Shown one piece after another: positions 1 to 62,122 of a stretch of 64,000 bases of DNA. Every line of letters begins with the position of its first letter. The first letter of the stretch is position 1. Under the pieces are notes generated by a model, which was given only the letters and a program-made list of their open reading frames with translations, was not told the DNA's origin and did not search any database. The stretch is from Thermoanaerobaculales bacterium. GTDB taxonomy: Bacteria > Acidobacteriota > Thermoanaerobaculia > Thermoanaerobaculales > Sulfomarinibacteraceae. Both the position numbers and the translations under genes were made by a program. The stretch spans positions 8,059-72,058 of the forward strand of contig JAZBOQ010000126.1 in the NCBI GenBank assembly GCA_036351195.1, in the 5' to 3' direction.

Positions 1-3000
1 GCCGGCGTCGATCTTCTCGGCGCGTTACCTCGACGACTCGACGGTCCGGTTGGAGCGTCGCTACGCCGACTACACGTTCCCGGCCTGGGTCCAGGGCGTC
101 GACTTCAGCGCCTTTTCGACCCCGGTCGCGACCGTTCCGGCGGGCGACCTCCCGGATCTGGTGACGGCCCCCGACGGTTACAGCCTGGCACCGGGCGAGA
201 GCTTGGTGGTGACCTTCCAGGTTGTGGTGGATGCCGATCTCGATCCGTCCGTGACAGAGATCGTCAACACCGCTTCGAGCTTGACCGACCAGAATCCGGT
301 TGCCACCAACGCAACGGTCACGGATCAGGTGATTCGCGCCGGTGTGCTGGTGACCCCAGGCAACGCAGGATTCGGCCCTGCCGGGAGCACGGTCACCTAC
401 AGTCACGAGGTCGTTAACAACGGTCCCGACGTCGACTCCTTCGAACTTACTCCCTACAGCGACCCCGGTCACCGGGTAGAACTCATCGACCCGGCCACGG
501 GAGCGGTCTTGGCGGTTGACGATGATGGAGACGGGCTGTGGGACGGAGGCACAGCGATCAACACCGGATCGATGGCCGTTGGTGAGTCGAAGGCCTACAA
601 CATCCGGGTGACGATTCCTCCGGGGACGACAGCGGGTAGTTCACTTTCCTCGGGTCTGACGGCCACTTCGGTTCGTGTGCCGACGGTTTCGTCGACGGCC
701 TACGACGAGACGCTGGTTGTGGACGACTTCGGGGAGGTCATCGTCACCCCCGACAACAGCGGAAGCATCGAAACGGTTCCGGGTACAGTTGTTTACCCAC
801 ACCACGTGATCAACAACACGGGGGTCGCCGACGTCTTCGATCTGAGCGTCTTCGACTCGCAGTCCGCTTCCGGGTGGTCCTCGACCATCCACTGGGACAC
901 CAACGGCGACGGTGTCTACACACCTGGAACGGATCTCGAGATCGCCAATACGGCGCAGCTGGACGATGGTGAGTCGCAGTTGATCTTCGTGGTGGTGACG
1001 GCCGATGGAGCTCAGGCGCCGGGTGATGTGAACGTCAGCAGTCTGGGGGCCGTTTCGCGGACCAATCCGACGGCCTGGCTCGACGGCGCCACCGACACCA
1101 CCACGGTTCAGGGCGGAACATTGGACTTCGACCTCACCGGCGGCGGCACCCGCCTGGTCGAACCGGGCGATACTGCCGTCTTCCCGGGACGCCTTCGAAA
1201 CCTCGGCGACGCCGCCGATACCTACGAGATGACCATCACACCGTCGCCGAACTTCGGCATCGACGGGTTTGACCACACCACTCAACTTGTCGTCGGTGGC
1301 GTGGTGGTTGCGGAGGATGAAGACGGCGACGGTAATTGGGACACCATCGACCCGGCCTACGGCGCCGGGCCCAACGGCGGTCCCATTCTCCCGGTCCCGG
1401 CGGGCGGGACCCTGTTGTACGACTTGGTGCGGCCGGTGGATGGGAATCAGCGGCCCTACCACGATCCGGTGACGCTGACCGCGCAGTCCCAGGCCTCAGG
1501 AGGCTGGGACAGCGTGACCGCCACCAACATCCTGCTCGCCGAGAGCCGGGCCGTATTGGCGGGCCTCGAGAGCTACTCGACGGGTGGGCGCGTCGTGGTT
1601 GAGTGGGTCACCACCGCCGAGATCGGAACGGTGGGCTTTGATCTGTACCGGCGTGCCGAAAGCGGTCCGAGCTTCATCAAGCTCAACCACCGGCTGCTGC
1701 AGGGCGTATTCGACGTTTCCCAGGGCGGCGTCTACCGATTCGTGGACGAAAAGGCATCCCCGGGCATGGACCTGGAGTACCTGCTCGTCGAGAGAGATGT
1801 CTGGGGAGACGAGGCGTCGTTCGGTCCCATCGCGACCACCGCGAAGGAGCTCGACGACGAGGACGAGCGACGATCCGCTGCCGTGTGGGACTCGGGTTAT
1901 GAAGCCGCGGCGCGTTCAGAGCGATTCAGAGAACCGGTGGAGATCGCCGGTGGACACGAGGCGTTGCCAGCCGACCGGATGAAGGTCGCCGTCGATCGTA
2001 TCGGTCTCGTCAGACTCGATGTCGACGATGTCGCTCAGGCTCTCGGTGTGGATGCCGGGAAGGCGGCCCACCTCATCGAGACCGGAGACTTCAGGATGAC
2101 CCTGGGCGGCGACGAGGTGGCCTGGATGCCCGAGGAGGGGGGCGGCGGCCTCTTCTTCTTCGGCGAGGCCAATGACAGCATCTACACCCGGGACAACGTC
2201 TACCTGCTCGAGGCAGTCGCCGGCTCGACCATGAACGCGACGGCCGGTGACCCCCAGAAGCCCCAGCCCGGTGGACTTTTCAACGAGTCGCTGCACGTGG
2301 AGCAGGAGCACTTCCCGGTGACCGCGGTGGTCACCGACCCGGAGGGCGACTTCTGGATGTGGGATCTGATGTACGTCGACAGCCCGGTCCCCGTGTCCAA
2401 GAGCTTCAACTTCCACGTTCCTGCGCCGGTCGCGGTGGAGAGCAGGGCGGCGATCACGGTTCACCTCCACGGAGCTCTGAACTCCGACGTTGCGTCCAAC
2501 CACCTGGCGCGAGTCCATCTCAACGGCCGGGAGCTCGGCACGGTGAGCTGGGAGGACCTCGACCCGGTCTCCGCGACCTTCCGGTTTCCGCAAGAGCTGC
2601 TCGTTGATGGGACCAACACCCTCGAGATCGATGCCGAGCTGGTTCCGGGAGTCGATGAGGATCTGATCCTTGTCGACGCCTTTGATGTGGTGTACAAGCG
2701 GGGGCTGGAAGCCGCCGCCGACCAGCTGCTGCTCAGCGGGCGCGGCGGCAGGGTAACGACCGTCACCGGTTTCACGGATCCCGAGATCATGGTCCTCGAC
2801 CTCACCGACCGCTTGCAGCCGTTCGTCCTCACCGGGACGACCATCGAGCGGCACGAGGGCGGCTTCAGTGTCACCTTCGTCCCGCCGGGCTCAGGTGAGA
2901 TTCTGGCGGTGGCCACCAGTTCGGCCGCTGGTCCGCACTGGATGACGCCGGACCAACCATCGGATCTGAGATCGGCGGCCAACGCGGCCGAGCACCTCGT

Positions 3001-4027
3001 CATCGCCGGGCCGGGGTTGGCCGACTCCGCCCAGGCCCTTGCCGATCATCGGACGGCCTACGGACTCCTCAGCCGGGTCGTGCGCATCGAGGACGTTTAC
3101 GACGAGTTCAACCACGGCATGGCAAGCCCCTGGGCGATTCGAGACTTCCTCCAGCTCGCCTGGACCACGTGGTCGGTGAGGCCGCGGTTCGTCGCGCTGG
3201 CGGGTGACGGGTCCCTGGACTACATCGACCGGCTCGGAGGGCACGAGAACCTGATCCCGGCGCCCCAGGTGAGCACGGAGCTCGGCCTCTTCGGTTCGGA
3301 CCAGCCGTTGGCGGACTTCGACGACGACGGCGACCCCGAGGTGGCTCTTGGTCGCCTTCCGGTGCATGATGCGGCCGAGCTGAGGACCATCATCGACAAG
3401 ATCATCGCGGCGGAGACCGCCGACCGGTGGTGGCGCTACACCACTCTTTGGGTTGCCGATGCGGCGGACGAAGGCGGCGAGTTCAGCGGCGATCTCGACG
3501 CCGTTCTCGATCTCCTCGGTCCGAGGTTCACGACCACCCGCATCGATCTGGATGTGACCGGGATCGGTCTTGGCCGCCAGCTGTTGAGCCAACGGTTCGA
3601 CCGCGGCGCGGCGCTCGTCGGTTTCCTCGGTCACGCCGGCATGGACCGGTTGGGTAACCACGGTGTGCTGACAACCGCGGACGTGGGGATGCTTGCCAAT
3701 GACGAGCGGATTCCCGTCGTGACCGCGTTCACCTGCGTCGCGGGTCGATTCGACTTGCCGCTTTACGACACCCTCGCCGAGACAATTCTCCTTCGTGAGG
3801 GTGGTGGTGCAGGGGCCGTTTTCGCACCCGTAGGCCTGACGATGAACGACGACACGGCCATGGTTGGGCAGCAGTTGGTTCGGGTGATCACCAAGAAGCC
3901 GGGCATTCGCATCGGCGATGCTACCCGCAGGGCCCTGTGGCGGTACGTGCGAACCGACGGCGCCGATCCCACGGTGGCCCGGCTCTTCGTCCTGCTCGGC
4001 GATCCGGCATTCGACCCGGGCTGGTAG
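1..4027 (+). CDS. Giant secreted DUF11-repeat protein with a C-terminal peptidase C25 (gingipain-like cysteine peptidase) domain; the 5' end runs off the window
   Basis: The frame is open from nt 2, with no stop before the track's TTG at 50, so the N-terminus is missing. The N-terminal half has repeated modules of the DUF11 / conserved-repeat-domain type (VTPGNAGFGPAGSTVTYSHEVVNNGPDVDSFEL; VTPDNSGSIETVPGTVVYPHHVINNTGVADVFDL; TGGGTRLVEPGDTAVFPGRLRNLGDAADTYEM). The C-terminal part has a C25-like His/Cys dyad context (FLGHAGMDRLG ... VVTAFTCVAGRFD). Stop TAG at 4025-4027. Confidence 0.7.
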   Translation, partial: PASIFSARYLDDSTVRLERRYADYTFPAWVQGVDFSAFSTPVATVPAGDLPDLVTAPDGYSLAPGESLVVTFQVVVDADLDPSVTEIVNTASSLTDQNPVATNATVTDQVIRAGVLVTPGNAGFGPAGSTVTYSHEVVNNGPDVDSFELTPYSDPGHRVELIDPATGAVLAVDDDGDGLWDGGTAINTGSMAVGESKAYNIRVTIPPGTTAGSSLSSGLTATSVRVPTVSSTAYDETLVVDDFGEVIVTPDNSGSIETVPGTVVYPHHVINNTGVADVFDLSVFDSQSASGWSSTIHWDTNGDGVYTPGTDLEIANTAQLDDGESQLIFVVVTADGAQAPGDVNVSSLGAVSRTNPTAWLDGATDTTTVQGGTLDFDLTGGGTRLVEPGDTAVFPGRLRNLGDAADTYEMTITPSPNFGIDGFDHTTQLVVGGVVVAEDEDGDGNWDTIDPAYGAGPNGGPILPVPAGGTLLYDLVRPVDGNQRPYHDPVTLTAQSQASGGWDSVTATNILLAESRAVLAGLESYSTGGRVVVEWVTTAEIGTVGFDLYRRAESGPSFIKLNHRLLQGVFDVSQGGVYRFVDEKASPGMDLEYLLVERDVWGDEASFGPIATTAKELDDEDERRSAAVWDSGYEAAARSERFREPVEIAGGHEALPADRMKVAVDRIGLVRLDVDDVAQALGVDAGKAAHLIETGDFRMTLGGDEVAWMPEEGGGGLFFFGEANDSIYTRDNVYLLEAVAGSTMNATAGDPQKPQPGGLFNESLHVEQEHFPVTAVVTDPEGDFWMWDLMYVDSPVPVSKSFNFHVPAPVAVESRAAITVHLHGALNSDVASNHLARVHLNGRELGTVSWEDLDPVSATFRFPQELLVDGTNTLEIDAELVPGVDEDLILVDAFDVVYKRGLEAAADQLLLSGRGGRVTTVTGFTDPEIMVLDLTDRLQPFVLTGTTIERHEGGFSVTFVPPGSGEILAVATSSAAGPHWMTPDQPSDLRSAANAAEHLVIAGPGLADSAQALADHRTAYGLLSRVVRIEDVYDEFNHGMASPWAIRDFLQLAWTTWSVRPRFVALAGDGSLDYIDRLGGHENLIPAPQVSTELGLFGSDQPLADFDDDGDPEVALGRLPVHDAAELRTIIDKIIAAETADRWWRYTTLWVADAADEGGEFSGDLDAVLDLLGPRFTTTRIDLDVTGIGLGRQLLSQRFDRGAALVGFLGHAGMDRLGNHGVLTTADVGMLANDERIPVVTAFTCVAGRFDLPLYDTLAETILLREGGGAGAVFAPVGLTMNDDTAMVGQQLVRVITKKPGIRIGDATRRALWRYVRTDGADPTVARLFVLLGDPAFDPGW

Positions 4028-4033
4028 GCGTCG

Positions 4034-5158
4034 GTGAATCAACCTGGCTGGATGAGTCGTTTCGGGGCCGAGGTCGCTCGGCGAAGGGTCCCCATTTCGG
4101 TGACCCTCGAGCTGACTCGGCGGTGCAACCTGCGATGCGTCCACTGCTATCTCGGGTCGCAGGAGGTGGTCCGCGAGTCGCGCGAGCAGGAGATGACGAC
4201 CGAGCAGATCTTGTCGGTCATCGACCAGGCGGTGGAGGCGGGGTGTTTGTACCTGCTCATCACCGGTGGTGATCCCATGATGCGGCGGGATTTTGCCGAG
4301 ATCTACCGGCACGCGAGACAGAGCGGTCTCGTGGTGACTGTCTTCGCCGACGGTGTGCTCGTCACCGACGCCGTTGTGGAGCTCTTCCGTGAGCTTCCGC
4401 CGCGGATGGTGGAGATCAGCCTCTATGGCGCCACCGCGGAGACCTACGAGACCGTAACGCGTGTCGAGGGCTCGTACGACAAGTGCCTGAGGGGCGTGCA
4501 CCGGCTGCTGGATGCGGGCATCGAGGTGGGTTTCAAGACGGTGCTTATGACCGTCAATCAGCACGAGCTCGAGGCCATGAGGACCCTGGCGGAGGATCTC
4601 GGCGTGGATTTCCGGATCGACGCCGCCATCTTCCCGTGCCTTTCCGACGGCAATCGGGATCCGCTCGCTCTCCGCGTGGCGCCTGCCGTCGGTGTCGACG
4701 GTGAACTCGCGGCGCCCGGCGCCGTGTCCAAGCTCCGGGAGTACGTGGAGAAGAGATCGGATATACCCGTATCCGACCGGCTCTACGGATGCGGGGCCGG
4801 GGTCACCGGGTTCTCGGTCGATCCCTACGGTTGGGCTTCGCCCTGCCTCATGGCCACACACGTGCGGGCAAACCTGTTGGAGCGTGGCCTGAACGAGGTG
4901 TGGAACGACGACTTGAAGATGGTGATGGACCGACCGGCGCCGGCGGGATATGCGTGCTCGAGCTGCGAGATGCGCGTCGCATGTATGGTCTGTCCCGCAT
5001 TCAATTATCTGGAGACCGGTTCAGAGGACGTGCCATCGGAGTACCTCTGCGCCGCAACTGCCATTCGGTGGAAGCGAATCAACGACGCGAACCCCGGTGG
5101 AGTGGACTGCGACATTCGTACGGCCACCGGAGAGATCTGGGAGGGTTCCACGGAATGA
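4034..5158 (+). CDS. Radical SAM / SPASM-domain peptide maturase
   Basis: Has the CxxxCxxC cluster motif (RRCNLRCVHCY) near the N-terminus. The C-terminal SPASM cysteines are CGAGVTGFSVDPYGWASPC (CX12GX4C) and CSSCEMRVACMVC (CX2CX5CX2C), plus a later Cys in EYLCAA. The GTG at 4034 lies 6 nt after the upstream stop; an alternative ATG is at 4052. Confidence 0.85.
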   Translation: MNQPGWMSRFGAEVARRRVPISVTLELTRRCNLRCVHCYLGSQEVVRESREQEMTTEQILSVIDQAVEAGCLYLLITGGDPMMRRDFAEIYRHARQSGLVVTVFADGVLVTDAVVELFRELPPRMVEISLYGATAETYETVTRVEGSYDKCLRGVHRLLDAGIEVGFKTVLMTVNQHELEAMRTLAEDLGVDFRIDAAIFPCLSDGNRDPLALRVAPAVGVDGELAAPGAVSKLREYVEKRSDIPVSDRLYGCGAGVTGFSVDPYGWASPCLMATHVRANLLERGLNEVWNDDLKMVMDRPAPAGYACSSCEMRVACMVCPAFNYLETGSEDVPSEYLCAATAIRWKRINDANPGGVDCDIRTATGEIWEGSTE

Positions 5159-5334
5159 GAAACCGTGTGAAGAAGAGCGAGAAGAAGAATCGACGCGAAT
5201 ATCGCCGGCCGGAGCTGAGATCCATCGACCTCGTTGCCGACGAGGTTCTTTCGGTCGGCTGCAAGTTGGCCAACAGCGGTGGACCGATTAGCAAGACCTG
5301 CAGCCTGTCGAGCTGTTCAGGCGTTGGGTCCTGA
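5155..5334 (+). CDS. Candidate RiPP precursor peptide (59 aa, 3 Cys, C-terminal Ser)
   Basis: Not listed separately in the track; it is hidden in the tail of ORF 4789..5334. The ATG at 5155-5157 overlaps the maturase stop TGA at 5156-5158 (ATGA). A GGGAGGG Shine-Dalgarno sits at 5139-5145. Sequence: MRNRVKKSEKKNRREYRRPELRSIDLVADEVLSVGCKLANSGGPISKTCSLSSCSGVGS. The N-half is basic and leader-like; the C-half is Cys/Ser/Gly-rich (Cys36, Cys49, Cys54). Confidence 0.6.
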   Translation: MRNRVKKSEKKNRREYRRPELRSIDLVADEVLSVGCKLANSGGPISKTCSLSSCSGVGS

Positions 5335-5360
5335 ACGAGTTGGGCCGAGGCCCCCTGGAA

Positions 5361-5654
5361 ATGAATACGCTCGAACCCCGGCCCGGAATCGTGGTTCGTC
5401 GGATCGCCGACGAGGTGTTGCTGGTCCCCACGACGGGCGAGTTGGCCGGGCTGCAGAAGATCTTCGTGCTCGACGAGGTGGGTTGTTTTATCTGGGAGCG
5501 GCTCGATGGTCGACGGAGCCTCGAGGAGATTTCCCGGCTCATCGCCGGGGAGTTCGCGGTCGAAGAGGACCGGGCGCACGCGGACGTTCTGGACTTCACT
5601 GGCGCACTGACCGATGCGGGTTTGGTCGTGTCGAGGGCGCCGGTTGACGATTGA
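5361..5654 (+). CDS. PqqD-family protein (stand-alone RiPP recognition element)
   Basis: 97 aa. IVVRRIADEVLLVPTTGELAGLQKIFVLDEVGCFIWERLDGRRSLEEISRLIAGEF...VLDFTGALTDAGLV is a typical PqqD/RRE pattern. The ATG at 5361 is 27 nt after the peptide stop; the track's TTG at 5340 is less likely. Confidence 0.75.
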   Translation: MNTLEPRPGIVVRRIADEVLLVPTTGELAGLQKIFVLDEVGCFIWERLDGRRSLEEISRLIAGEFAVEEDRAHADVLDFTGALTDAGLVVSRAPVDD

Positions 5655-5658
5655 AACG

Positions 5659-6579
5659 ATGGTGGACACGCTCGTTCAGCTCTCCATCGCCGACGTGACG
5701 TTGACGGCGGTGGGCGATTCCCGATCGGTGCACATCGAAAAGGACTCGGATTTCTACGCGGCCTTTCTCGGCGGGCGCGGCGATCCCGGCAACGCTGTAG
5801 AGTTCGTCTTCGAGCTGCAGACCGACAGGCCTCCAGAGCCTGGGGTGCTTCCGATGGTCTTCGACACCGGCGAAGCGTGGAAGGTCTACCGCGACGGACC
5901 GGATACGCTGATCGCCATGCCGGCTCCCAGAGGGGTCGACGGTCATCTCTGGGTGGTCCGTCTCAACCAGGAGAATCGACATCACCAGCTCTACGTTGGG
6001 CCGGCTCTGGTGCGCCATGAGGCGGGTCGGCGGGTGATCGAGAACCCGCTGCGCTATCCGCTCGATCAGATTCTGATGATGTACCTCATGGCGCAACACC
6101 GGTGCCTTATCCTGCACGCCGCGGGGATCTGCCGCGGGGGCCTCGGCGTACTATTCTCCGGCGTTTCCGGCGCGGGGAAGAGCACGCTCTCCGGCCTGCT
6201 CGAAGGGCTCGACGACACCGTGCACCTCAGCGACGACCGGGTCGTGGCCCGGAAGGTGCGAGACGGCATCCGTGTCTACGGCACACCGTGGCCCGGCGAG
6301 GCCATGGTTGCCGCCGACGAGAGCGCACCACTCGGCGCGGTCGTGCTCTTACGTCAGGCGGCTCACCACGAGCTCACGCGACTCGAACCGGTCGAGGCTC
6401 TCAAACGTCTGCTCCCGATGGCTTCCATCCTCTGGTACGACTCGGTCCGCGCCGATGCCGCTCTCGGCTGGTGCGACGAGCTCCTGCGGTCGGTGCGCGC
6501 CTACGAACTGGCTTTCGCCAGAGATGAGCGTGTCAGGGCCGTGGTCGAAGACCTCTTTGACGAGCTCTCGGCTTCCTGA
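5659..6579 (+). CDS. HPr kinase/phosphorylase C-terminal-domain-like P-loop protein (HprK-related)
   Basis: Has the P-loop GVSGAGKST followed by HLSDDRVV, matching the HprK pattern G.SG.GKS ... LV.DD.V. The ATG at 5659 is 5 nt after the PqqD stop (5652-5654). Confidence 0.65.
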   Translation: MVDTLVQLSIADVTLTAVGDSRSVHIEKDSDFYAAFLGGRGDPGNAVEFVFELQTDRPPEPGVLPMVFDTGEAWKVYRDGPDTLIAMPAPRGVDGHLWVVRLNQENRHHQLYVGPALVRHEAGRRVIENPLRYPLDQILMMYLMAQHRCLILHAAGICRGGLGVLFSGVSGAGKSTLSGLLEGLDDTVHLSDDRVVARKVRDGIRVYGTPWPGEAMVAADESAPLGAVVLLRQAAHHELTRLEPVEALKRLLPMASILWYDSVRADAALGWCDELLRSVRAYELAFARDERVRAVVEDLFDELSAS

Positions 6580-12159: not shown

Positions 12160-12927
12160 ATGATCGAAACAGGACTGAAGGGGAAAGTTGTCATCGTGAC
12201 CGGCGCCGCCGCCGGCATCGGCCGCGGCACCGCCGAGGCGTTCGCGGGGGAAGGCTGCCGGGTGGCGGCCTGGGACGTCAGCGACGCCGATGAGATCGCC
12301 GCCGCCGACGGCGGTGAGGTGGTGTATCAGAAGGTGGACGTCACCGACGTCGACGCGGTCGCCGCGGCGGTCGCCGAGGTGGTCGAGCGTTGGGGCGGCA
12401 TCGACGTGCTGGTCAACAACGCCGGCATCGTCCGCGACGCCCAGCTCGTCAAGTATAAAAACGGCGAGGTGGTCGCCACCATGAGCGACGCCCAGTGGGA
12501 CGCCGTCATCGGGGTCAACCTCAAGGGAGTTTTCAATTGCACCCGCGCTGTGGTCCCGCACCTCATCGCGGGGGGCGGCGGAACGATCCTCAACGCGTCG
12601 TCGGTGGCGTGTCTGGACGGCAACTTCGGCCAGACCAACTACGTCGCCACCAAGTCCGGGGTCATCGGCATGGCCAAGACCTGGGCCCGCGAGCTTGGAA
12701 AGTTCGGTATCCGCGTCAACGCGGTGGCCCCCGGCTTCGTCGCCACCGAGATCATCAGCGCCATGCCGCAGAAGGTCCTGGACGGCATGGTCGCCCACAC
12801 CCCGCTGGGCCGGATCGGTGACGTCAAGGACATCGCCAACGCCTACGTCTGGCTGGCGTCGGATGCGGCGAGCTGGATCACCGGAACGACGCTGTCGGTG
12901 GATGGTGGTCTCGTCATTGGCACATAG
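12160..12927 (+). CDS. Short-chain dehydrogenase/reductase, 3-oxoacyl-ACP reductase (FabG)-like
   Basis: Has VVIVTGAAAGIGRG (Rossmann TGxxxGxG), NNAG, and the catalytic S...YxxxK (SSVACL…NYVATK). Confidence 0.85.
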   Translation: MIETGLKGKVVIVTGAAAGIGRGTAEAFAGEGCRVAAWDVSDADEIAAADGGEVVYQKVDVTDVDAVAAAVAEVVERWGGIDVLVNNAGIVRDAQLVKYKNGEVVATMSDAQWDAVIGVNLKGVFNCTRAVVPHLIAGGGGTILNASSVACLDGNFGQTNYVATKSGVIGMAKTWARELGKFGIRVNAVAPGFVATEIISAMPQKVLDGMVAHTPLGRIGDVKDIANAYVWLASDAASWITGTTLSVDGGLVIGT

Positions 12928-13092
12928 TAATTATGAGTTATGAGTTATGAGTTATGAGTTATGAATGTTATCGCACCGAGAAACGTGTCGATGGATGAGG
13001 GTTTTGAGTCTAATTTATTGACTCCAAATTACCGTGAATATGACAGTTCGAGGTTCGATGTTCGGAATTCATCATTCATCATTCATAATTCG
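12928..13092. repeat. AT-rich periodic-arm hairpin element (left arm (GTTATGA)n, right arm (TCATCAT)-type)
   Basis: Starts the nucleotide after the SDR stop. The left arm, 12928-12975, is TAATTATGA(GTTATGA)x3...GTTATCGCA. The right arm, 13065-13092, is GAATTCATCATTCATCATTCATAATTCG. The reverse complement of the right arm matches the left arm at about 18/22 positions. About 30 percent GC in a GC-rich genome. Confidence 0.7.
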
Positions 13093-16774: not shown

Positions 16775-16781
16775 ATCAATC

Positions 16782-16843
16782 GATCCCGTTCCCGATCCCG
16801 CTCCCGTTCCGGAGCGGTCGAGTCGGGAACGGGATCGGGAACG
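16782..16843. repeat. Hairpin built from CCCGNT / GGGANC hexamer arrays
   Basis: The left arm, 16782-16811, is GATCCCGTTCCCGATCCCGCTCCCGTTCCG. The right arm, 16824-16843, is CGGGAACGGGATCGGGAACG, with a 14-nt exact complement. It lies between the ligase stop (16774) and the thiolase start (16862). Confidence 0.7.
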
Positions 16844-16861
16844 AAAACAAGGAGAACCGGA

Positions 16862-18067
16862 ATGAAAAAGATCTATATCGCCGCATACCACCAAAGCAAG
16901 TTCGGCAAGCTCTTCGCCAAGACGGTGCCGGAGATCATCACCGCCGCCATCGACGAGACCTACGCCGAGGTCGGCGCCGATCCCGCCGCCGTGGACGTCG
17001 GCTCCATCGGCGCCACCTGCAACTTCTCCCTCAACGAGCAGGGGCTCCTCGCGGGTCTCATGGCCATGTCACCAGGCCTCGGCGGCAAGCCCATCGAGGC
17101 CGTGGAGAACGCCTGTGCTTCCGGTGGCCAAGCGGTGCTGTCGGTCATCCAGAAGCTGCAGCTCGGTTTCGGCGAGGTGGGAATCGCCGTCGGCTACGAA
17201 AAGATGCGCAACGACGAGGGCAAGATGGACGGGGCTCTCATCGGCAAGGTCCTCGGCTACTTCTCCCACCCGGACGAGCGGGAGGGCAAGACCTACATCT
17301 TCCCGCACCTCTTCGCCGAGGTCATGCAGACCTACATGGAGACCCACGGCACCACCGAGCGGGAGTTCGCGGAGATCTCGTCGCGCGAGTACGCCAATTC
17401 GAGCTTCAACCCCTACGCCCAGATGCAGAAGATCGAGGTCTCGGTGGACGAGGCGACGACTCCCGAGGGCCGCAACCGCTACATCGTGCCCGGCCTGCCG
17501 CTCAAGACCTACGACTGCTCGCAGATCACCGACGGCTACGCCGGCATGTTGCTGGCCACTGAAGAGGGGCTGCAGCGCCTCGGCGTCGCCAAGGCCGACT
17601 GCGTCGAGATCGCCGGGTACGGCCAGGGGACGGACCCGCTGCTGAAGGAGGGCCGCGACATTCTGCGGCCGCAGGGTGCGTTCAACGCCATGAACGCCGC
17701 CTACGCCATGGCCGGCGAGAAGCCCGAGGACGTCAACGTCGCGGAGATCCACGACTGCTTCACGGTCATGGGCGCCATCGGCACCGAGGTCATCGGCAAG
17801 GCCGGCTACGGTGAAGGCGCCAAGTACTGGTGCGACGGCAAGGCCGACGCCAAGGGCGAGTGCGGCATCAACACCTCGGGCGGGCTCATCGCCAAGGGCC
17901 ACCCGGTGGGCGCCACCGGGGTCGCCATGATCGGTTGGGCGGCGTGGCAGCTCCAGGGCAAGGTTCCGGCCGCGCTCCAGGTGCCGGATCCCAAGATCGC
18001 CGCCACCTTCAATATCGGTGGACCGATCTGCGCGTCGGTCTGCACCGTGCTCCGCACGGCGCAGTAG
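16862..18067 (+). CDS. Thiolase-like protein (SCP-x / nonspecific lipid-transfer-type thiolase)
   Basis: Has the active-site region VENACASGGQAV and C-terminal EIHDCFTV and NTSGGLIAKGHPVGATG. SD AAGGAGAA lies upstream of the ATG. Confidence 0.8.
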   Translation: MKKIYIAAYHQSKFGKLFAKTVPEIITAAIDETYAEVGADPAAVDVGSIGATCNFSLNEQGLLAGLMAMSPGLGGKPIEAVENACASGGQAVLSVIQKLQLGFGEVGIAVGYEKMRNDEGKMDGALIGKVLGYFSHPDEREGKTYIFPHLFAEVMQTYMETHGTTEREFAEISSREYANSSFNPYAQMQKIEVSVDEATTPEGRNRYIVPGLPLKTYDCSQITDGYAGMLLATEEGLQRLGVAKADCVEIAGYGQGTDPLLKEGRDILRPQGAFNAMNAAYAMAGEKPEDVNVAEIHDCFTVMGAIGTEVIGKAGYGEGAKYWCDGKADAKGECGINTSGGLIAKGHPVGATGVAMIGWAAWQLQGKVPAALQVPDPKIAATFNIGGPICASVCTVLRTAQ

Positions 18068-18169
18068 TTATGAGTTATGAGTTCTTAGTTATGAGTTACA
18101 TCGCACGGAATTCACGACGTAGAGTGGGCCGTAAATAACTAAGAACTCAGAACTAAAAACTGAGAACTC
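18068..18169. repeat. AT-rich periodic-arm hairpin element
   Basis: Starts the nucleotide after the thiolase stop. The left arm, 18068-18105, is TTATGAGTTATGAGTTCTTAGTTATGAGTTACATCGCA. The right arm, 18133-18169, is AAATAACTAAGAACTCAGAACTAAAAACTGAGAACTC. Confidence 0.7.
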
Positions 18170-18212
18170 TCGAGGTGCGTGCCTGTTGGACGGCCTCGAA
18201 GAAGGGATCGCC

Positions 18213-19244: not shown

Positions 19245-19640
19245 CTACCGGTCCCCGATCCGGCGGCAGCTCGAACGAATCCAGACGACGAGGTGATCGA
19301 AGTCGCATTCGCCGGTTTCCAGCAACCCGATGAGAAATCCATGGGCCTCTCGGGCCTCGACCTGGAGCTTCCATCCGTTGAGCCGGAGAAATACATCGGT
19401 CGCGAAAAACGCGACCCGTTTGTTGCCGTCGGCAAACGGGTGATTCATGATCAATGACTCGAAGAGGGCCGCGGCCATCGCAGTCAGGTCGCCGTAGTAC
19501 CCCGACTGCGGGCGATACAGGGCGCTTTCCACCAAGCCGAGATCGCGGACACCGCCCGGACCGCCGAAGATCTCAATGACCCGCTGGTGAATCGCCAGGC
19601 ACTCGTCGAGACTTAAAAAAGCAACGGTGTCACTTGGCAA
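19245..19640 (-). CDS. doc: Doc (death-on-curing) / Fic-family toxin
   Basis: Has the Fic/Doc motif HPFADGNKRVAF and the N-terminal LSLDECLAIHQRVIEIFGG. The TTG start overlaps the antitoxin 3' end by 11 nt. Confidence 0.85.
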   Translation of the reverse strand: MPSDTVAFLSLDECLAIHQRVIEIFGGPGGVRDLGLVESALYRPQSGYYGDLTAMAAALFESLIMNHPFADGNKRVAFFATDVFLRLNGWKLQVEAREAHGFLIGLLETGECDFDHLVVWIRSSCRRIGDR

Positions 19641-19842
19641 GGAGGCGCCCCAGCTCCTCGTTCTCGGCGATCGAGTCGCCGAGGTGGTTCATCACGACCG
19701 GACGAACCCGTCTGCGCCGCACATAGTCTCTGATCGCCTCAGTCAGGAGGCCCCCGATGCTCTGGTGAGACTCTTCGGCGATCGCCCGCAGGTCGTTCCA
19801 CGCCGACTCCTCGACTTTGGAGCTGATCTTGATGGCTGCCAC
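19630..19842 (-). CDS. Ribbon-helix-helix (CopG/Arc-type) antitoxin
   Basis: Has a beta strand IKISSKV followed by two helices (EESAWNDLRAIAEES..IGGLLTEAIRDYVRR). I prefer the GTG at 19842, 6 nt after AAGGAGG, over the track's TTG at 19875. Confidence 0.7.
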   Translation of the reverse strand: MAAIKISSKVEESAWNDLRAIAEESHQSIGGLLTEAIRDYVRRRRVRPVVMNHLGDSIAENEELGRLLAK

Positions 19843-19853
19843 GGCACGCCTCC

Positions 19854-19906
19854 TTGACAAATCAAGATATGTCAATCCAGCACGATCGTCAACCGGCAGA
19901 TCGTGC
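19854..19906 (-). promoter_or_regulatory. Candidate toxin-antitoxin promoter with two inverted-repeat operators
   Basis: Read on the minus strand: -35 TTGACG (19892-19887), a 17-nt spacer, then -10 TATCTT (19869-19864). Inverted repeat TTGACA (19854-19859) / TGTCAA (19870-19875) spans the -10. Inverted repeat GCACGATC (19880-19887) / GATCGTGC (19899-19906) spans the -35. Confidence 0.45.
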
Positions 19907-20085: not shown

Positions 20086-21219
20086 ATGCACGCACCCCAG
20101 ACCTCAGTGACCGACCCCCACGCGCTGCTCGAGCAGCACCGCCGAGACATCGAGGCGCTGGACCGGCGCATTCTGCACCTGGTCTGCGAGCGCCTCGAGC
20201 TCGCCCGCCAGGTGGGCGAGCTCAAGGGCGACCTCTCGGTGCCGCTTCGCAACTTCAAGGTCGAGGCCCAGGTCTACCGGCGGTTCGAGGACGCGAGCTC
20301 GCTGCTCGGCCTCGATGTCGGCCTCGGCCGCGACCTCGCCCGGTTCCTCATCGAAAAGGCGGTGGAGGAGCAGGCCACCCTGCGCGACGCGGTCTACGCC
20401 GGCGACGCTCTCGACACCGTCGTCATCGGCGGCAAGGGGGGCATGGGGCGGTGGATCTGTCGGCTCCTGGCCGGCCAGGGCCACCGGGTGCGGGTGATCG
20501 ACCCGAGCGACGGCGAGACCGCCTTCGACGAGGCCCAGTCCCTGAGCGACGCCGCCGACGCCGATCTCATCATGGTGGCGGTGCCGATGAGCCTCTGTCC
20601 GGGGATCCTCGATGAACTGGCGGCCGTCGGCCCGCGAGGGGTGGTGGCCGAGATGTGTAGCCTCAAAGGGCATCTCGGCCCAACCATCGCCCGACTGCGC
20701 TCGGCGGGCGTCCGCGTGATCTCCTTCCACCCCATGTTCGGGCCAGATGTCCGCATGCTCGAGGGCCGGACGGTTGCCTTCTGCAGCGATGCGCCACGAG
20801 AGGATCTCGAGGTGGTTGAAGGGCTTTTTGCCGACACCAGCGCCCGGTTAGTGGAGATGGACCCGATGGAGCACGACCGCCGAATGGGGCTGGTGCTCGG
20901 TCTGACCCACCTGGCCAACCTGGTCTTCGCCCGCGCGCTGGTGCTGTCCGAGGTCGGCGCCGACGAGCTGGCCGAGGTCGCCGGCGTGACGTTCGGCCGC
21001 CAGCTCGAGACCACCCGTGAGGTCGCGAGCGAGAACCCGTCGCTCTACTACGAGATCCAGGCCCTCAACGGGCTCACCCCGGAGACCGGCCGGTGGCTGC
21101 GCGAGGCGCTGGACGATTGGTTGGAGGCCATCGAGGAACCCGGAGATGATCGCTTCGCGGAGCTCATGACCACCTGCAGGGCGACCCTGGACGACGCGAG
21201 CGGGAGGAATGACGGGTGA
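20086..21219 (+). CDS. tyrA: Bifunctional chorismate mutase / prephenate dehydrogenase
   Basis: Has an N-terminal AroQ chorismate mutase helix pattern (RRDIEALDRRILHLVCERLELARQVGELK), then an NAD-binding VVIGGKGGMGRW and a prephenate dehydrogenase body (ISFHPMFGP). Confidence 0.85.
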   Translation: MHAPQTSVTDPHALLEQHRRDIEALDRRILHLVCERLELARQVGELKGDLSVPLRNFKVEAQVYRRFEDASSLLGLDVGLGRDLARFLIEKAVEEQATLRDAVYAGDALDTVVIGGKGGMGRWICRLLAGQGHRVRVIDPSDGETAFDEAQSLSDAADADLIMVAVPMSLCPGILDELAAVGPRGVVAEMCSLKGHLGPTIARLRSAGVRVISFHPMFGPDVRMLEGRTVAFCSDAPREDLEVVEGLFADTSARLVEMDPMEHDRRMGLVLGLTHLANLVFARALVLSEVGADELAEVAGVTFGRQLETTREVASENPSLYYEIQALNGLTPETGRWLREALDDWLEAIEEPGDDRFAELMTTCRATLDDASGRNDG

Positions 21220-22328
21220 AACGCGCACTGGACGGCGTCATCGCCGCGCTGAAGGACTTCGATGATCGCCGGATCGACCTTCTGGTGGGAGAGCCGTGCT
21301 TCGAGCCGCCGGAGGAGATCCGGTCGGCCTTCGTCAGGAACGCCCGCAAGCCGGTCCCGGGGTACGGTCCGCCGGCGGGGATTGCAGAGCTTCGGTCCGT
21401 TCTCGCGGCGCGAATCGGCGGACCCGGATTCGATCCGGAGAGGGTTGTCGTGACCCACGGCGCCAAGGGCGGGCTGCTGGCGCTCCTGGCGGCGCTGGTG
21501 GAGTACGGCGACGAGGTGATCCACCCGCTGCCGTGCTACCCGGCCTACCCGGCCATGGTGCGGCGCTTGGGGGGTGTTCCGGTGGGTGTGGCCGAACGGG
21601 GTCCGGACTTTGCCGGGTGGGCCGCGGCGGCGGCGGCGAAAATGGGGGAGCGGACCCGCGCGATGGTGCTCTCGTCTCCCTCGAACCCGTCGGGTTCGGT
21701 GGTCCCGAGCGGGGAGCTGCGTTCTCTGGCCGCCGAGTGCGGCGAGCGGCGCGTGCGGCTGATTCTCGACGAGGCGTACGCTGCCTTCCACCTCGACGGG
21801 GGTGGGTTCGATCCCGGCGCGGACCCGGTACTCGAGGCCCTGGTCCGGGTCGGATCGGCCTCCAAGAGCCTGGCGATCCCCGGTTGGCGCATGGGTTGGG
21901 TCGTGGCCGACGAGGAACTGGCGGCCTCGGTGACCGGGGCCCAGGCGATGCTGCTCAACCCACCGGCGATCCCGCCGCAGCAGGCGCTGCTGGCGCTTCC
22001 CGAGGTCCCAGGGTCGTTCTTCGAGACCAACCGTTGCGAGGTTCGCACCAGAATGGAGGCTCTGGTCGGGGCGATGAGCTCTACGGGCTTTGAGTGCGCC
22101 CTGCCGTCGGGCGGCTTCTACCTGTGGATCGACATCCGCGACCGGCTGGGAAACGAGACCTCGGTCGAGTGGTGCGAGCGCCTCGCCCGGGATGAGGGCA
22201 TCGGCTTCTGGCCCGGCGAGGACTACGGCTGCCCCGGCTTCGTCCGTCTGGCGTTGCCCCAAGGCGACGCATGGCGCGACGACGTCGCCGAGCTCGAACA
22301 ACGTCTTCAGCAGTCCAAGCGAGTCTGA
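21216..22328 (+). CDS. Class I/II PLP-dependent aminotransferase
   Basis: The GTG overlaps the tyrA stop (GTGA). Has YGPPAGIAELR, LSSPSNPSG, and the PLP-lysine context SASKSLAIPGWRMGW. Confidence 0.85.
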   Translation: MKRALDGVIAALKDFDDRRIDLLVGEPCFEPPEEIRSAFVRNARKPVPGYGPPAGIAELRSVLAARIGGPGFDPERVVVTHGAKGGLLALLAALVEYGDEVIHPLPCYPAYPAMVRRLGGVPVGVAERGPDFAGWAAAAAAKMGERTRAMVLSSPSNPSGSVVPSGELRSLAAECGERRVRLILDEAYAAFHLDGGGFDPGADPVLEALVRVGSASKSLAIPGWRMGWVVADEELAASVTGAQAMLLNPPAIPPQQALLALPEVPGSFFETNRCEVRTRMEALVGAMSSTGFECALPSGGFYLWIDIRDRLGNETSVEWCERLARDEGIGFWPGEDYGCPGFVRLALPQGDAWRDDVAELEQRLQQSKRV

Positions 22329-22978
22329 ACCCTGCCCCGCCGGCCTGCTGTGGTGCCTCTGGCATCCAATCGTCGCGCGGTCGTTTGTCAGGTAGGGTGG
22401 GCCTTGGCCCACCGCGGGTGCCTGCTGACGTGGTCGTCGTCCCGGATCCAGCCCTCGGCGCCGGCGTTCTGTGCCACCTCCACCTGGCCGGTGGTGGCGG
22501 CACAGCGTCGCCCGAGCAGCGTGGTCATTTGCGAAACGACGACGAGGTGACCACGCTGCTCGGGCGAGCGACGGCCTACCTCCGAGCCGGTAGAAGTCCT
22601 TTCGACGGCTGGGCTCGGCGATTGCCACTCTTGGCATTGTTCGCGACGATCGGCATGCCGGGACGGTCAGCAGGGAGCAATGCCAAGAACGGCACGTCCG
22701 TCCCAACGCGAATACTCGCGCTCGGGTTGGGAAAACGCGTGCAGGGAGCTTGCGATGGGTCAAAGATGCGACGCTCTGCGCAGGCTCCGCATGCCCGGAC
22801 GCGGCCATCGCATCGGGAGCGGGAGCGGGATCGGGAACGGGGTCGATCGCTCAAACCAGCACACCGCAACAACCACGGTACGGGTACGGGCGAGGGTGGG
22901 GAAAGGGTTCCGGTAGAGTAGAGAGAACATCTACCGGGCGGTGCGATGCTGCCCGGGTTTTCTTGGAGGACGGACAGA
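22329..22978. repeat. Mosaic repeat cluster A (650-bp gene-free interval)
   Basis: Modules shared with 48925-49897 and 57189-57816. These are REP GGTGGGCCTTGGCCCACC (22396-22413); a long hairpin (stem 22508-22526 / 22549-22567); the GGCACGTCC...GGGTTGGG module (22691-22731); and GGGNNC arrays (22815-22842 and 22882-22907). Confidence 0.8.
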
Positions 22979-24346
22979 ATGCGCGACCCGAAGATCCTGC
23001 TGACAGCTGAAGAAATGCCCCGCCAGTGGTACAACCTGGCCGCTGACCTGCCAAAACCGCCGCCGCCGCCGCTGGGTCCGGACGGGCAGCCCATCGGGCC
23101 GGAGGCGCTGGCGCCGGTCTTCCCCATGAACCTCATCGAGCAGGAGGTTTCCACCGAGCGCTGGGTGGACATCCCGGACGGCATCCTCGAGATTGTTGCG
23201 GGCTGGCGGCCGTCGCCGCTGCGCCGCGCCTTCGCCCTGGAAAAGGCCCTCGCGACTCCGGCGAAGATCTACTACAAGGACGAGAGCGTCTCGCCGGCGG
23301 GCAGCCACAAACCCAACACGGCGGTGCCCCAGGCCTGGTACAACAAGCAGTTCGGCATCGAGCGTCTGTTCACCGAGACCGGCGCCGGTCAGTGGGGCAG
23401 CGCGCTGTCATTCGCCTGCGCCCAGGTTGGGCTCGAGTGCAAGGTCTACATGGTGCGGGTGAGCTTCGACCAGAAGCCGTTCCGCAAGGTGATGATGCAG
23501 ACCTGGGGCGGCAGCTGTGTCGCGTCGCCCAGCGACGAGACCGAGGCGGGGCGCACCATCCTCGCCGAAGACCCGGACTCGCCGGGCAGCCTGGGAATCG
23601 CCATCTCCGAGGCCATCGAGGCTGCGGTCAGCGATCCAACGGGCAAGTCCCGCTACTCCCTGGGCAGTGTGCTCAACCACGTGCTGATGCATCAGACCAT
23701 CATCGGCCTGGAGGCCAAGAAGCAGCTCGAGAAGGCCGGCGAAGGCGCGCCCGACGTGGTCATCGGCTGCGCCGGCGGCGGCAGCAACTTCGCTGGCATC
23801 GCGTTCCCCTTCGTCGCCGACAAGATCAACGGCGCCGAGATCGAGATCCTGCCGGTGGAGCCCAGCGCCTGTCCGACCCTGACCCGGGGGCCCTACGCCT
23901 ACGACCACGGCGACGTGGCCAAGATGACTCCGCTGCTCGCCATGTACTCCCTCGGCCACCGCTTCATCCCGCCGACCATCCACGCCGGCGGGCTCCGCTA
24001 CCACGGGATGGCGCCGTTGGTCAGCGCCGCGGTGGACCAGGGCCTGATGGCGCCCCGCGCCTACGGTCAGGAGGAGTGCTACCAGGCGGCGGTGCAGTTC
24101 GCCCGAACCGAGGGGCTCCTCATTGCGCCGGAGACCAGCCACGCGGTGGCGGCCACCATCGACGAGGCGAAGAAGGCCACAGAGGAAGGCAAGGAGAAGA
24201 CCATCCTCTTCTGCCTGTCCGGCCACGGTCTCCTCGATCTGAAGGGCTACGAAATGTACCTCGCGGGCGACATCGCGAACTACCCGCTGCCCGAAGAGGT
24301 CCTCCTTCGTTCCCTCGCGGTCATGGAGGGTCATCCGAAGCCGTAA
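22979..24346 (+). CDS. TrpB2-type tryptophan synthase beta-like PLP enzyme
   Basis: [19 protein letters not shown] is a typical TrpB2 N-terminus. Has the PLP lysine in [11 protein letters not shown] and the GGGSNFAG glycine loop. ATG 22979 follows SD GGAGGA (22964-22969). Confidence 0.85.
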
Positions 24347-37070: not shown

Positions 37071-37281
37071 TCAACTCTCAGTTCTTAGTTCTCAGTTTTC
37101 AGTTACATCGCAGGTGGTGGAGGATTCGAGGCTCTTGAGGGATTGAGGACCTCATCTCGGCCATGAGTCATGAGTTCCATCGCATGGAATCCTGAACGCT
37201 TGCGATTGAACTCAAAACTCAGAACTACCGCAATCGCCTCAACACCTGCGATGGAACTCAAAACTCAAAACTCATAACTCC
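37071..37281. repeat. Nested AT-rich periodic-arm hairpin element (best example of the family)
   Basis: The outer left arm, 37071-37112, is (..CTCAGTT/CTTAGTT/CTCAGTT/TTCAGTT)ACATCGCA. It pairs with the outer right arm, 37247-37281, TGCGATGGAACTCAAAACTCAAAACTCATAACTCC. The inner hairpin is 37162-37184 (CATGAGTCATGAGTTCCATCGCA) / 37201-37228 (TGCGATTGAACTCAAAACTCAGAACTAC). The element starts 2 nt after the dehydrogenase stop. Confidence 0.75.
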
Positions 37282-37330
37282 GACCACGGGATCGGCGTCA
37301 ACCCGCCAGGTTGACGCCGATCCCGTGGTC
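37282..37330. terminator. Perfect 20-bp inverted repeat overlapping the 3' end of the DUF2231 gene
   Basis: GACCACGGGATCGGCGTCAA (37282-37301) / TTGACGCCGATCCCGTGGTC (37311-37330) with a 9-nt loop. There is no T-tract, so the terminator role is uncertain. Confidence 0.4.
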
Positions 37331-42192: not shown

Positions 42193-42396
42193 GACTGTAA
42201 TTATGAATGATGAATGATGAATGGTGGATTATTTCCATGGCGGGTTCCGATGTGGCCGGGTTGTGGCCCGTATCCGATGAGGTCTGCCAGGTGGGCCTTG
42301 GCCCACCAGATCGCCCTGCGGGTCAGGGAGCCACGTCATCGGGCACGGGTACGGGTACGGGTACGGGTACGGGGTGCTGCGATACACTTTCGGCAG
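42193..42396. repeat. Divergent priA/ATL intergenic mosaic (21-mer, REP, GGGTAC array)
   Basis: Contains ATTATGAATGATGAATGATGA (42200-42220), REP GGTGGGCCTTGGCCCACC (42290-42307), and six GGG runs of a (GGGTAC)n array (42341-42374) followed by TGCGAT. Confidence 0.8.
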
Positions 42397-42862: not shown

Positions 42863-43155
42863 GGATCATCCCGCAAATGCCGGGATGATCCCAAGTTCTG
42901 ATTTCTCAGTTTTTCGTTCTTAGTTATCATCGCAAGGAACGGTGCGGCGATGAATGCGGGGCCGGTTCAACCAGGAGCGCCAGCGGCACAAACAGATTCA
43001 GCCGGTGACAGCCGGCGCCGTGACGCCTGCGATGACTGCGATGAAACTCATAACTCAAAACTCATAACTCAAAACTCAGGTTCATCCCGCCATTTGCGTG
43101 ATGAACCTTAACCCTTAACCCTTCACCCTCAACTCTTGCCCTCAAACCTCCAACC
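42863..43155. repeat. MITE-like composite: hairpin TIRs flanking a periodic-arm element, then a (CCTTAAC)n array
   Basis: The left TIR is 42863-42891 (GGATCATCCCGCAAATGCCGGGATGATCC). The right TIR, 43079-43107, matches it at 25/29 positions when reverse-complemented. The AT-rich arms are 42895-42934 (…GTTCTTAGTTATCATCGCA) and 43028-43080 (TGCGATGACTGCGATGAAACTCATAACTCAAAACTCATAACTCAAAACTCAGG). A heptamer array at 43106-43154 runs into the last codons of mqnA. Confidence 0.7.
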
Positions 43156-47390: not shown

Positions 47391-47500
47391 AGTGAGAAAG
47401 AAAGAAAGTGAGAAGGTGAGAAAGTCAGAGGGTGTTTCCCGATAGACCTTCTAACCTTCTAACCCTCTAGCCTTCTAACTTCCTAACTCTCTAACTCTTC
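47391..47500. repeat. Purine-rich / pyrimidine-rich 8-nt periodic-arm element
   Basis: The left arm reads AGTGAGAA AGAAAGAA AGTGAGAA GGTGAGAA AGTCAGAG. The right arm, 47447-47500, reads ACCTTCTA ACCTTCTA ACCCTCTA GCCTTCTA ACTTCCTA ACTCTCTA ACTCTTC. The last unit overlaps the stop and final codons of the minus-strand gene 47491..48924. Confidence 0.65.
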
Positions 47501-61938: not shown

Positions 61939-62122
61939 CGATTATGAATGATGAATGATGATTTATGAATTCCATCGCATTGGATTCAGACCGGGGAGTG
62001 AGTCCACTCATCAACGCGACGACGACCATTCACATCGCTGCGAAGAATGTCCAAGGCAGCCCGGAGTGCGGCAACCAAGCGCGTCGGAGACTTCAGCGCC
62101 GTAGGGTGGGCCTTGGCCCACC
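61939..62122. repeat. Upstream region of the MgtC-like gene: 21-mer, CATCGCA anchor and REP
   Basis: Contains ATTATGAATGATGAATGATGA (61941-61961), CATCGCA (61973-61979) and GTAGGGTGGGCCTTGGCCCACC (62101-62122). Confidence 0.8.

Follow-up and report, generated by a model that had tools for sequence, protein, structure and literature searches.

For Proteobacteria, Firmicutes and Cyanobacteria, interspersed structured repeats are well documented. Among such repeats, the ERIC/IRU repeats and the Correia elements of Neisseria are imperfect-palindrome intergenic repeats of at least 100 nt, which form long hairpins when transcribed and can alter the processing or stability of mRNA. The element described here was found three times in a 64,000-nt stretch of DNA (the window: positions 8,059 to 72,058 of contig JAZBOQ010000126.1, assembly GCA_036351195.1), which comes from the metagenome-assembled genome (MAG) of an uncultured member of the Thermoanaerobaculales (Acidobacteriota). 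It has a core of about 290 nt, is non-coding, folds into four to five hairpins and very probably belongs to a family of interspersed structured repeats. Its stem-loop H1 is probably one module of a lineage-specific, multi-hairpin mosaic repeat of the same kind as REP/BIME, ERIC and BOX (PMC3049150, PMC3116915, PMC3184786).

A REP is a short imperfect palindrome of 20-40 bp, and two REPs in inverted orientation make up a REPIN (Di Nocera et al. 2013, PMC3733652; Bertels & Rainey 2011, PMC3116915). REPs carry a tag, a conserved unpaired GTAG or CGTC at one end; in the families tagged with CGTC the stem measures 8-9 bp and the loop 4-5 nt, a CCA tail is present, and no dedicated transposase is known (PMC3733652). 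In the case of REPINs, the maintenance of hairpins by compensatory changes has been described (PMC3116915). The pneumococcal repeats BOX, with its boxA-boxB(n)-boxC order, RUP and SPRITE are thought to act on co-transcribed genes by means of their structure (Croucher et al. 2011, PMC3049150). For Thermoanaerobaculia, a search of the literature found no account of interspersed structured repeats.

Read directly from the sequence at all three sites, the H1 hairpins of the window exist as the initial annotation had described them. In copy A, TCGCCCGAGCAGCGTGGTC (22508-22526) faces GACCACGCTGCTCGGGCGA (22549-22567) in a perfect 19-bp stem around a 22-nt loop. Copy B pairs 49664-49681 with 49704-49721 through 17 bp and one C.A mismatch, and copy C has the same stem as copy A, 19 bp including one G.U pair, with its arms at 57537-57555 and 57577-57595. 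The coordinates given earlier for this last hairpin (57547-57565 and 57587-57605) were 10 nt too high, and a palindromic self-match at 57537-57595 agrees with the correction. Six compensated changes set copy B apart from A and C, at stem positions 5, 6, 9, 11, 12 and 16 from the loop, each of which restores pairing, and the flanks of the three copies are likewise those originally reported, CAGCGTCG on the 5' side and CGGCCTRCCT on the 3' side. The proposed conservation of the loop holds among the window copies but not across the family, where at least three loop types occur, for example ATGTGAGAAACGAGGATGCGGT, AGCGGTGGCGGCCGGGAGAGCAAT and GTACGAAGGAAACCGGGACAACACA. Chance is excluded for H1, because its signature pattern matches the window three times against 0.00 matches expected from shuffles and its folding z-scores are strongly negative: the minimum free energies (MFE) of copies A, B and C are -47.5, -35.4 and -44.5 kcal/mol, with z of -9.9, -6.0 and -8.8 against dinucleotide shuffles. 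Folding is comparably good on the complementary strands.

H1 had been presented as a hairpin of 60 nt standing on its own. Similarity among the three sites spans instead about 290 nt, in which the modules follow each other in the order P1, H0, H1, M, H2 and H3, so that H1 is the second stem-loop. All three copies are intergenic and lie on the plus strand, and folds made for each copy give the same architecture. P1 is a GGCC/GGCC clamp, and H0 is a hairpin closed by CTGG/CCAG. Across the family, H1 is a stem-loop of 58-64 nt with a stem of 19-23 bp and a loop of 21-25 nt. In the base helix of H2, GATTGCCA pairs with TGGCACGTCC; its 13-bp stem is CTCTTGGCATTG in copy A, GTTCACACTTTTC in copy B and CACGCGCATTGTGC in copy C, each with its own complement opposite. 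The whole of copy A has an MFE of -157.3 kcal/mol. RNAalifold, run on MAFFT alignments, recovers P1, P2, H1 and the H2 base; it misses H0, M and the H2 stem because the alternative modules are misaligned, and these three were taken from the folds of individual copies. The features of the three copies, all on the plus strand unless stated, are as follows.

22451-22741, plus strand: element copy A (nhmmer match 22451-22735, E 5e-63; covariance model R1 22458-22595, 126.5 bits; fold z -6.4).
22469-22505, plus strand: P2 and H0 hairpin of copy A (CTGTGCCACCTCCACC..GGTGGTGGCGGCACAG), which folds and whose CTGG/CCAG closing helix co-varies (helix 2).
22508-22567, plus strand: H1 of copy A, backed by folding and by covariation (helix 3).
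22577-22616, plus strand: M hairpin of copy A (CCGAGCC..GGCTCGG), a variable middle module that folds and has alternative sequences elsewhere.
22617-22702, plus strand: H2, the long hairpin of copy A, with base GATTGCCA / CGGCACGTCC and stem TCTTGGCATTG / CAATGCCAAGA; the base co-varies (helix 4).
22703-22733, plus strand: H3 hairpin of copy A (CCCAACGCGA..TCGCGCTCGGGTTGGG), which folds (helix 5 of the covariation alignment).
49606-49893, plus strand: element copy B, with H1 at 49663-49722 and H2 at 49771-49854 (nhmmer 49607-49889, E 8e-57; covariance model 122.1 bits).
57480-57771, plus strand: element copy C, with H1 at 57537-57595 and H2 at 57645-57732 (nhmmer 57482-57767, E 2e-71; covariance model 129.5 bits).
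22374-22450, plus strand: optional 5' module of copy A, which includes the perfect palindrome GGTGGGCCTTGGCCCACC (direct-repeat family D11).
Neighbours of copy A: aminotransferase gene 21216-22328 (plus) and trpB-like gene 22979-24346 (plus).
Neighbours of copy B: 5'-nucleotidase gene 47491-48924 (minus) and a small membrane-protein gene ending at 49898 (minus).
Neighbours of copy C: mgsA 56730-57188 (plus) and a small membrane-protein gene 57817-58170 (plus).

Further copies were collected by scanning metagenomes with the anchors CAGCGTCGNCC .. GATYGCCA .. GGCACGTCC, which leave the H1 and H2 stems unconstrained. The scan returned 44 loci with 40 true copies; together with the three of the window and three in the locus of its closest relative (L071, JGI sample 3300017613), the collection amounts to about 45 copies. 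All of them lie between predicted genes, and they come from a narrow clade. Twenty of the 43 metagenome copies have a contig end within about 300 nt, as expected for repeats that break assemblies. Neither the profile search nor the covariance model detected additional copies in the window, and the density is about one copy per 20 kb both there (three in 64 kb) and in L071 (three in 21 kb). Searched with the pattern CAGCGTCG..ACGANGANNNGGTGAC, species-representative genomes yielded 70 matches, all of them single chance matches without a hairpin in the coding DNA of unrelated taxa, which indicates that the clade has no representative carrying this signature. The six pattern matches among viral contigs do not fit the element profile.

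The evidence that the structure is under selection comes from covariation. In an alignment of 41 copies (A5), 96.9% of the cells of the consensus structure are paired, and double-sided changes occur in 12 pairs and 82 cells, values that none of 500 shuffles reached, although many of these cells share ancestry and the independent events are therefore fewer than the cell counts suggest. When the partner is slid by 1-3 columns, pairing falls to 25-39%. H1 contributes seven of its 16 pairs, with examples such as U-A in 20 copies and C-G in 18, C-G in 35 and G-C in 6, G-C in 33 and A-U in 6, or C-G in 28 and U-A in 6. The claim that H1 is selected for its structure is thus borne out across the family, and the outcome proposed as its refutation, two unrelated sequence families with no supported covariation, was looked for and is not what the copies give: they form one family in which covariation is clear. 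The H2 stems go further, with four to five unrelated sequence types, each complementary to its partner arm, and a copy found by synteny rather than by the pattern (in the related locus L123) has changed TGCCA/TGGCA to TACCA/TGGTA. Another feature of the H1 stem is a recurrent U.C mismatch at A5 columns 82 and 132 (22516 and 22559 in copy A of the window), with GATCAG opposite CTGCTC in 16-19 copies; G-C and U-A versions occur at the same position, the reciprocal G.A combination never does, and the mismatch could be a fixed imperfection of the stem or a hybrid of two stem variants.

Orthologous copies show how pairing and sequence part ways. The copy upstream of trpB2 is common to the window, to L071 (TrpB2 89% identical) and to L123 (TrpB2 87%), which has one copy at the same site between the aminotransferase gene and trpB2. 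Sequence identity among these copies is 62-66%, close to the 50-70% seen in the flanking genes when third codon positions are compared, and each keeps 17-19 of the 19 H1 pairs. As the sequence drifts at about the synonymous rate while the H1 pairs are kept, it is the pairing that persists rather than the sequence. More distant loci lack the copy: L124 holds traces of the element only, and in L072, L125 and L126 (TrpB2 84-77%) no copy was found, including upstream of trpB2. Two extra copies in L071, one between trpB2 and a major facilitator superfamily (MFS) gene and one next to PspC, are absent from the syntenic region of the window, which has 106 nt at the trpB2-MFS site and a short terminator-like hairpin at the PspC site. 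Comparing filled and empty sites of the window with L071 and L072 gave no exact insertion boundaries, because the intergenic DNA is too diverged. On the PspC side, L072 has about 330 nt of different sequence (L072:16083-16509) that the element profile does not recognise and that could be a decayed copy or another repeat.

The copies keep no fixed relation to their neighbours. The flanking genes are oriented ++ in seven cases, -- in four, convergent (+-) in three and divergent (-+) in two; many copies lie 5-30 nt from a stop codon; and the 121 neighbouring proteins, products of unrelated housekeeping genes with 157 Pfam families, include no recurrent family of mobile elements. All three window copies and all three in L071 have a single orientation, on the probable leading strand.

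Besides being dispersed, the element is a mosaic. The H1 loop, M, H2 and H3 each exist in two to five alternative versions that are combined differently between copies, and BLAST similarity between paralogues is piecewise. In some cases a second, partial copy follows, which starts at the H1 3' arm, and in others an inverted 5' half does. Relative to the core anchors, paralogues are similar as far as about -45 on one side and about +10 to +40 on the other, and nothing at the 3' edge corresponds to the 5' edge (..CCTCRAC / GGNAC-GCCGGCC). The optional 5' module seen in copy A also occurs at copy B (49529-49605) and in L071, with BLAST pairs at 22386-22628 / 49541-49781 and at 22374-22422 / 49397-49445. 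A miniature transposon derived from an insertion sequence (MITE) was considered and rejected, since the element has neither inverted termini nor a recognisable target duplication and forms no sets of near-identical copies. An inverted pair of copies in one metagenome locus (L107) was also rejected as a composite transposon, because the genes it encloses encode a secreted protein and a small membrane protein, with no transposase.

Several ordinary identities were tried and discarded. Protein coding was suggested by a conserved, start-like ATGGCACGTCC, but copy A has ACG there and indels of 1 nt follow directly (GTC-CC against GCCGG); the element has no conserved reading frame, and open frames within it are uninformative at 65% G+C. 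The sigma-54 promoter TGGCACG-N4-TTGC was rejected since its -12 GC is not conserved, and no sigma-70-like promoter sites were found in or next to the element. A type I toxin-antitoxin locus was excluded by the lack of a conserved small open reading frame (ORF) and by too high a copy number. Rfam 15 gave no window match at the gathering score, and at E <= 10 only generic hairpin matches to miRNA precursors. The search for intrinsic terminators returned no terminator-like site inside the element and no U-tract after any of its hairpins. The only terminator-like site in 22300-23000 is at 22934-22966, outside the element; it consists of a hairpin and a T-run (CCGGGCGGTGCGATGCTGCCCGG GTTTTCTT), precedes the start codon of the trpB-like gene at 22979 by about 10 nt, and could be an attenuator or a structure that sequesters the ribosome-binding site.

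Compared with the described systems, the element shares with the REP/BIME repeats of E. coli and the REPINs of Pseudomonas the character of high-copy extragenic palindromes, the mosaic units, the hairpins predicted in single-stranded DNA (ssDNA) or mRNA, and the maintenance of pairing; it also has the high copy number and extragenic confinement of the REP/REPIN-RAYT systems. H1 had been offered, as one of two options, as an ssDNA hairpin of REP type, but it departs from the definitions of PMC3733652 in size, stem, loop and tail. In length the unit exceeds a REP about tenfold, and the stem and loop of H1 lie outside the published ranges. The CGTC at the 5' foot of H1 in all copies recalls the CGTC-tagged REPs, but it was required by the search pattern and its last bases are paired. 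Moreover, the element has no GTAG tag, the arms of H1 are not palindromic REPs, and the element has no master sequence with many identical copies. No RAYT or Y1 transposase was found in the window or recurring among the 121 neighbouring proteins, a result that covers partial genome data only.

The element also resembles the pneumococcal BOX, RUP and SPRITE repeats (PMC3049150): all are modular intergenic repeats with extensive predicted secondary structure in a narrow lineage, scattered in the core chromosome, which turn over slowly among related genomes and encode no transposase. The element differs from BOX in showing no apparent sequence similarity to it, in its different phylum, and in its four to five hairpins, which keep the same order and each come in alternative versions, whereas BOX varies in the number of boxB units. 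The traits of mosaic structured repeats of the BIME/BOX kind, that is, alternative modules in variable combinations with partial and inverted arrangements, are all present here, and membership is claimed for this kind and not for a named family, BIME and BOX being lineage-specific and the element matching no Rfam family. With ERIC/IRU and Correia, reviewed by Delihas (2011, PMC3184786), the element shares imperfect palindromes of at least 100 nt in intergenic DNA. These are, however, single long hairpins made from terminal inverted repeats (with a TA target duplication in Correia), whereas the element has several internal hairpins and no terminal inverted repeats. The orphan guide-RNA scaffolds of mobile elements (HEARO, the IscB and TnpB omega RNAs, and the PATEs of IS200/IS605) are similarly multi-copy and structured, measure about 200-300 nt and can lack an adjacent ORF. 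The element differs from them in that the Rfam models of HEARO and of IS605-associated families do not match it even at E <= 10, in having no nuclease or transposase gene beside the roughly 45 copies, and in showing no conserved target motif at a defined end.

The element is thus a dispersed, old, structurally constrained, orientation-independent and mosaic repeat with turnover of its sites. In the probable reading as a mosaic repeat, it would be or have been a non-autonomous replicator, spread or homogenised by a trans-acting enzyme, by gene conversion or by both, and the selected property would be the ability of a single strand to fold. The form that folds could be ssDNA, while the element is mobilised by a trans-acting enzyme as for REPIN and RAYT, or RNA co-transcribed by read-through from a neighbour; the two forms deserve roughly equal weight, each as a tentative proposal. 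As RNA, the stacked hairpins might serve as a barrier or as an end-protecting structure in either orientation, as has been proposed for REP and BOX, and the PspC site, where an element stands in place of a simple terminator hairpin, is a single hint towards this form.

A number of observations weigh against the reading as an interspersed mosaic repeat. The invariance of CAGCGTCG, GATYGCCA and GGCACGTCC among the metagenome copies was imposed by the search pattern. There are no near-identical paralogues, the maximum being about 93% across the metagenomes and 73-80% among the three window copies, and hence no sign of recent transposition; neither terminal inverted repeats nor a recognisable target duplication was found, and the boundaries are fuzzy. 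An associated transposase was not found either, in data that cover genome fragments only, which together with the lack of identical copies argues against recent mobility. That pairing is kept in old, diverged copies is explained more easily by a function at the level of the host than by pure selfishness. The strand signals are also mixed. With Watson-Crick-only folding of H0, H1 and H2, single mismatches inside helices of the plus strand are A.C in 44 cases and G.U in 2, so that the wobble pairs would lie on the minus strand only, favouring folding of that strand; the H2 base and H3, in turn, carry many G.U pairs on the plus strand, and energies per hairpin favour minus for H0 and plus for H1 and H3.

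Other comparisons of the two strands are similarly divided. At one H1 position, the path from C-G to U-A goes through C.A in seven copies and never through U.G. Whole-element energies show no strand difference (plus is favoured in 26 of 41 copies, p = 0.25), and within the window copy B pairs better on the minus strand and copy C on the plus strand. Since the plus strand of the window is probably the leading one, a replication-linked C-to-T bias predicts the opposite of the mismatch pattern in H0 and H1; the asymmetry, which has opposite signs in different helices, is not accounted for by the likely replication strand. These signals fit an element that folds in either orientation better than an RNA gene of one strand.

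Among the alternatives, a module beneficial to the host at the RNA level and without present mobility, whose co-transcribed hairpins would, in both orientations, end transcription, insulate it or shield the ends of mRNAs, appears rather unlikely. It would agree with the similar folding of both strands, the random orientation with respect to neighbours, the proximity of many copies to stop codons, the pairing kept at near-neutral divergence of orthologous copies, and the presence of the element next to PspC in L071, in the position of a simple terminator-like hairpin of the window. Nevertheless, the lack of a U-tract or of any internal terminator-like site speaks against it, as do a length of 290 nt with five hairpins, which far exceeds what termination needs, the absence of the element from the same sites in close relatives, and the lack of depletion between divergent genes, seen in a small sample. 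A REPIN-like element mobilised by RAYT or by a Y1 (HUH) transposase of IS200/IS605 type, in which H1 would be the ssDNA hairpin with CGTC at its foot, has a small probability. The long hairpin formed by inverted arms and a spacer, the CGTC foot, the high copy number of wholly extragenic copies, the compensatory maintenance known for REPINs (PMC3116915) and the single orientation of the six copies of the window and L071 would all suit such an element. Its stem, loop and 290-nt context are nonetheless unlike those of REPs (PMC3733652), the arms are not themselves palindromic REPs, the CGTC, some of whose bases are paired, was built into the search pattern, a population of identical copies is lacking, no Y1 transposase occurs in the window or recurs among the neighbours, and even the CGTC REPs have no known dedicated transposase (PMC3733652).

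It is highly doubtful that the copies are a family of independently transcribed, trans-acting structured small RNAs of about 290 nt. Such RNAs could explain the strong covariation, the independence from the orientation of neighbours and the retention of a multi-helix architecture whose junctions ACGCCGGCCTTCTG and GAGCGRCGGCCTRCC are conserved outside the search pattern; but there are no promoter-like or terminator-like sites in or beside the element, the flanks are not conserved, at roughly one copy per 20 kb the element is much more frequent than known small RNA families, the signals on the folding strand are inconsistent, truncated and composite copies exist, and Rfam has no match. Lastly, copy A lies upstream of the trpB-like gene, a position kept in L071 and L123, and could therefore be taken for a cis-regulatory leader of that gene (a riboswitch, an attenuator or a T-box-like element). 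This is effectively refuted by the distribution of the copies, as B, C and about 40 others are beside unrelated genes in all orientations; moreover, L072 and L125 have no element upstream of trpB2, and Rfam has no match.

The genomic setting is an ordinary one. The trpB-like protein beside copy A is 100% identical to an NCBI protein labelled 'MAG: Thermoanaerobaculales bacterium', and the G+C content of the window is 65.5%. Its genes are chromosomal and housekeeping genes (RNase R, PriA, NadA, urocanase, transporters and others), with no transposase or integrase among them, and a search of the window returned neither tRNA nor tmRNA genes. At the left edge (2-6579), a very large gene for a Peptidase_C25-domain protein, which reaches that edge, is followed by radical SAM and PqqD-domain genes and by one gene without a Pfam family; this neighbourhood could be a peptide-modification cluster. 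A Fic/Doc-family gene and its small upstream partner ORF (19245-19875, minus strand), the sole minus-strand pair amid plus-strand genes, are probably a toxin-antitoxin pair.

Other repeats also occur in the intergenic space. The window contains five occurrences of a perfect palindrome, GGTGGGCC(TT/AA)GGCCCACC, most of them directly behind gene ends (22393-22414, 49416-49437, 49476-49498, 42290-42315 and 62101-62122); two of these sites border on element copies A and B, and the palindrome looks like a separate short repeat family, REP-like or terminator-like. Short tandem-repeat arrays, either GC-rich or AT-rich, are arranged as inverted pairs in many intergenic gaps. The AT-rich version, conspicuous against a genome of 65% G+C, consists of a heptamer (AGTTMTN)n ending in CATCGCA, a spacer of 30-110 nt, TGCGATG and the inverted array; sites of such arrays, including this version, are at 18066-18180, 37080-37290, 42894-43080, 12922-13090, 42200-42230 and 61940-61983. 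GC-rich hexamer arrays, (CCCGNT)n .. (GGGANC)n, are found at 16779-16850, 22806-22850, 49340-49362 and 57779-57808. Hexamer arrays flank many element copies in the metagenome loci, as (GGATAC)n, (GGAGAC)n, (GGGATC)n, (CACTGC)n or (CACGGC)n, and are kept upstream of trpB2 in L071, L072 and L123. Beside copies B and C there are further repeats unrelated to the 290-nt core: 57236-57330 against 53011-52917 (inverted, 83%), a palindrome at 57293-57358, 49455-49544 against 62144-62055 (80%), and 49008-49065 against 57414-57471 (79%). The intergenic DNA of the source organism appears to be a patchwork of several repeat families.

The evidence points to no new mechanism, and the copies probably make up a bacterial repeat family that is new but of an already recognised kind. 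That the element represents, rather than junk or a REP analogue, a new class of structured nucleic acid of about 290 nt, with a five-helix architecture, conserved junctions and hundreds of sites per genome at which each copy works, is unlikely. Such a class could be, for example, a mobile element acting as an ssDNA hairpin with a partner enzyme or a dispersed RNA module that a specific host protein recognises, and the use of its two halves on opposite strands could explain the excess of A.C in H0 and H1 against G.U in the H2 base and H3. The family offers an unusually clean natural experiment, with dozens of diverged copies whose stems have been fully rewritten and yet remain paired. It breaks metagenome assemblies of its clade and could serve as a strain marker. 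If it has neither a partner enzyme nor a role at the RNA level, it would be an ordinary lineage-specific repeat; if either of them proves true, REPIN- or BOX-type biology would extend to a deep-branching uncultured lineage.

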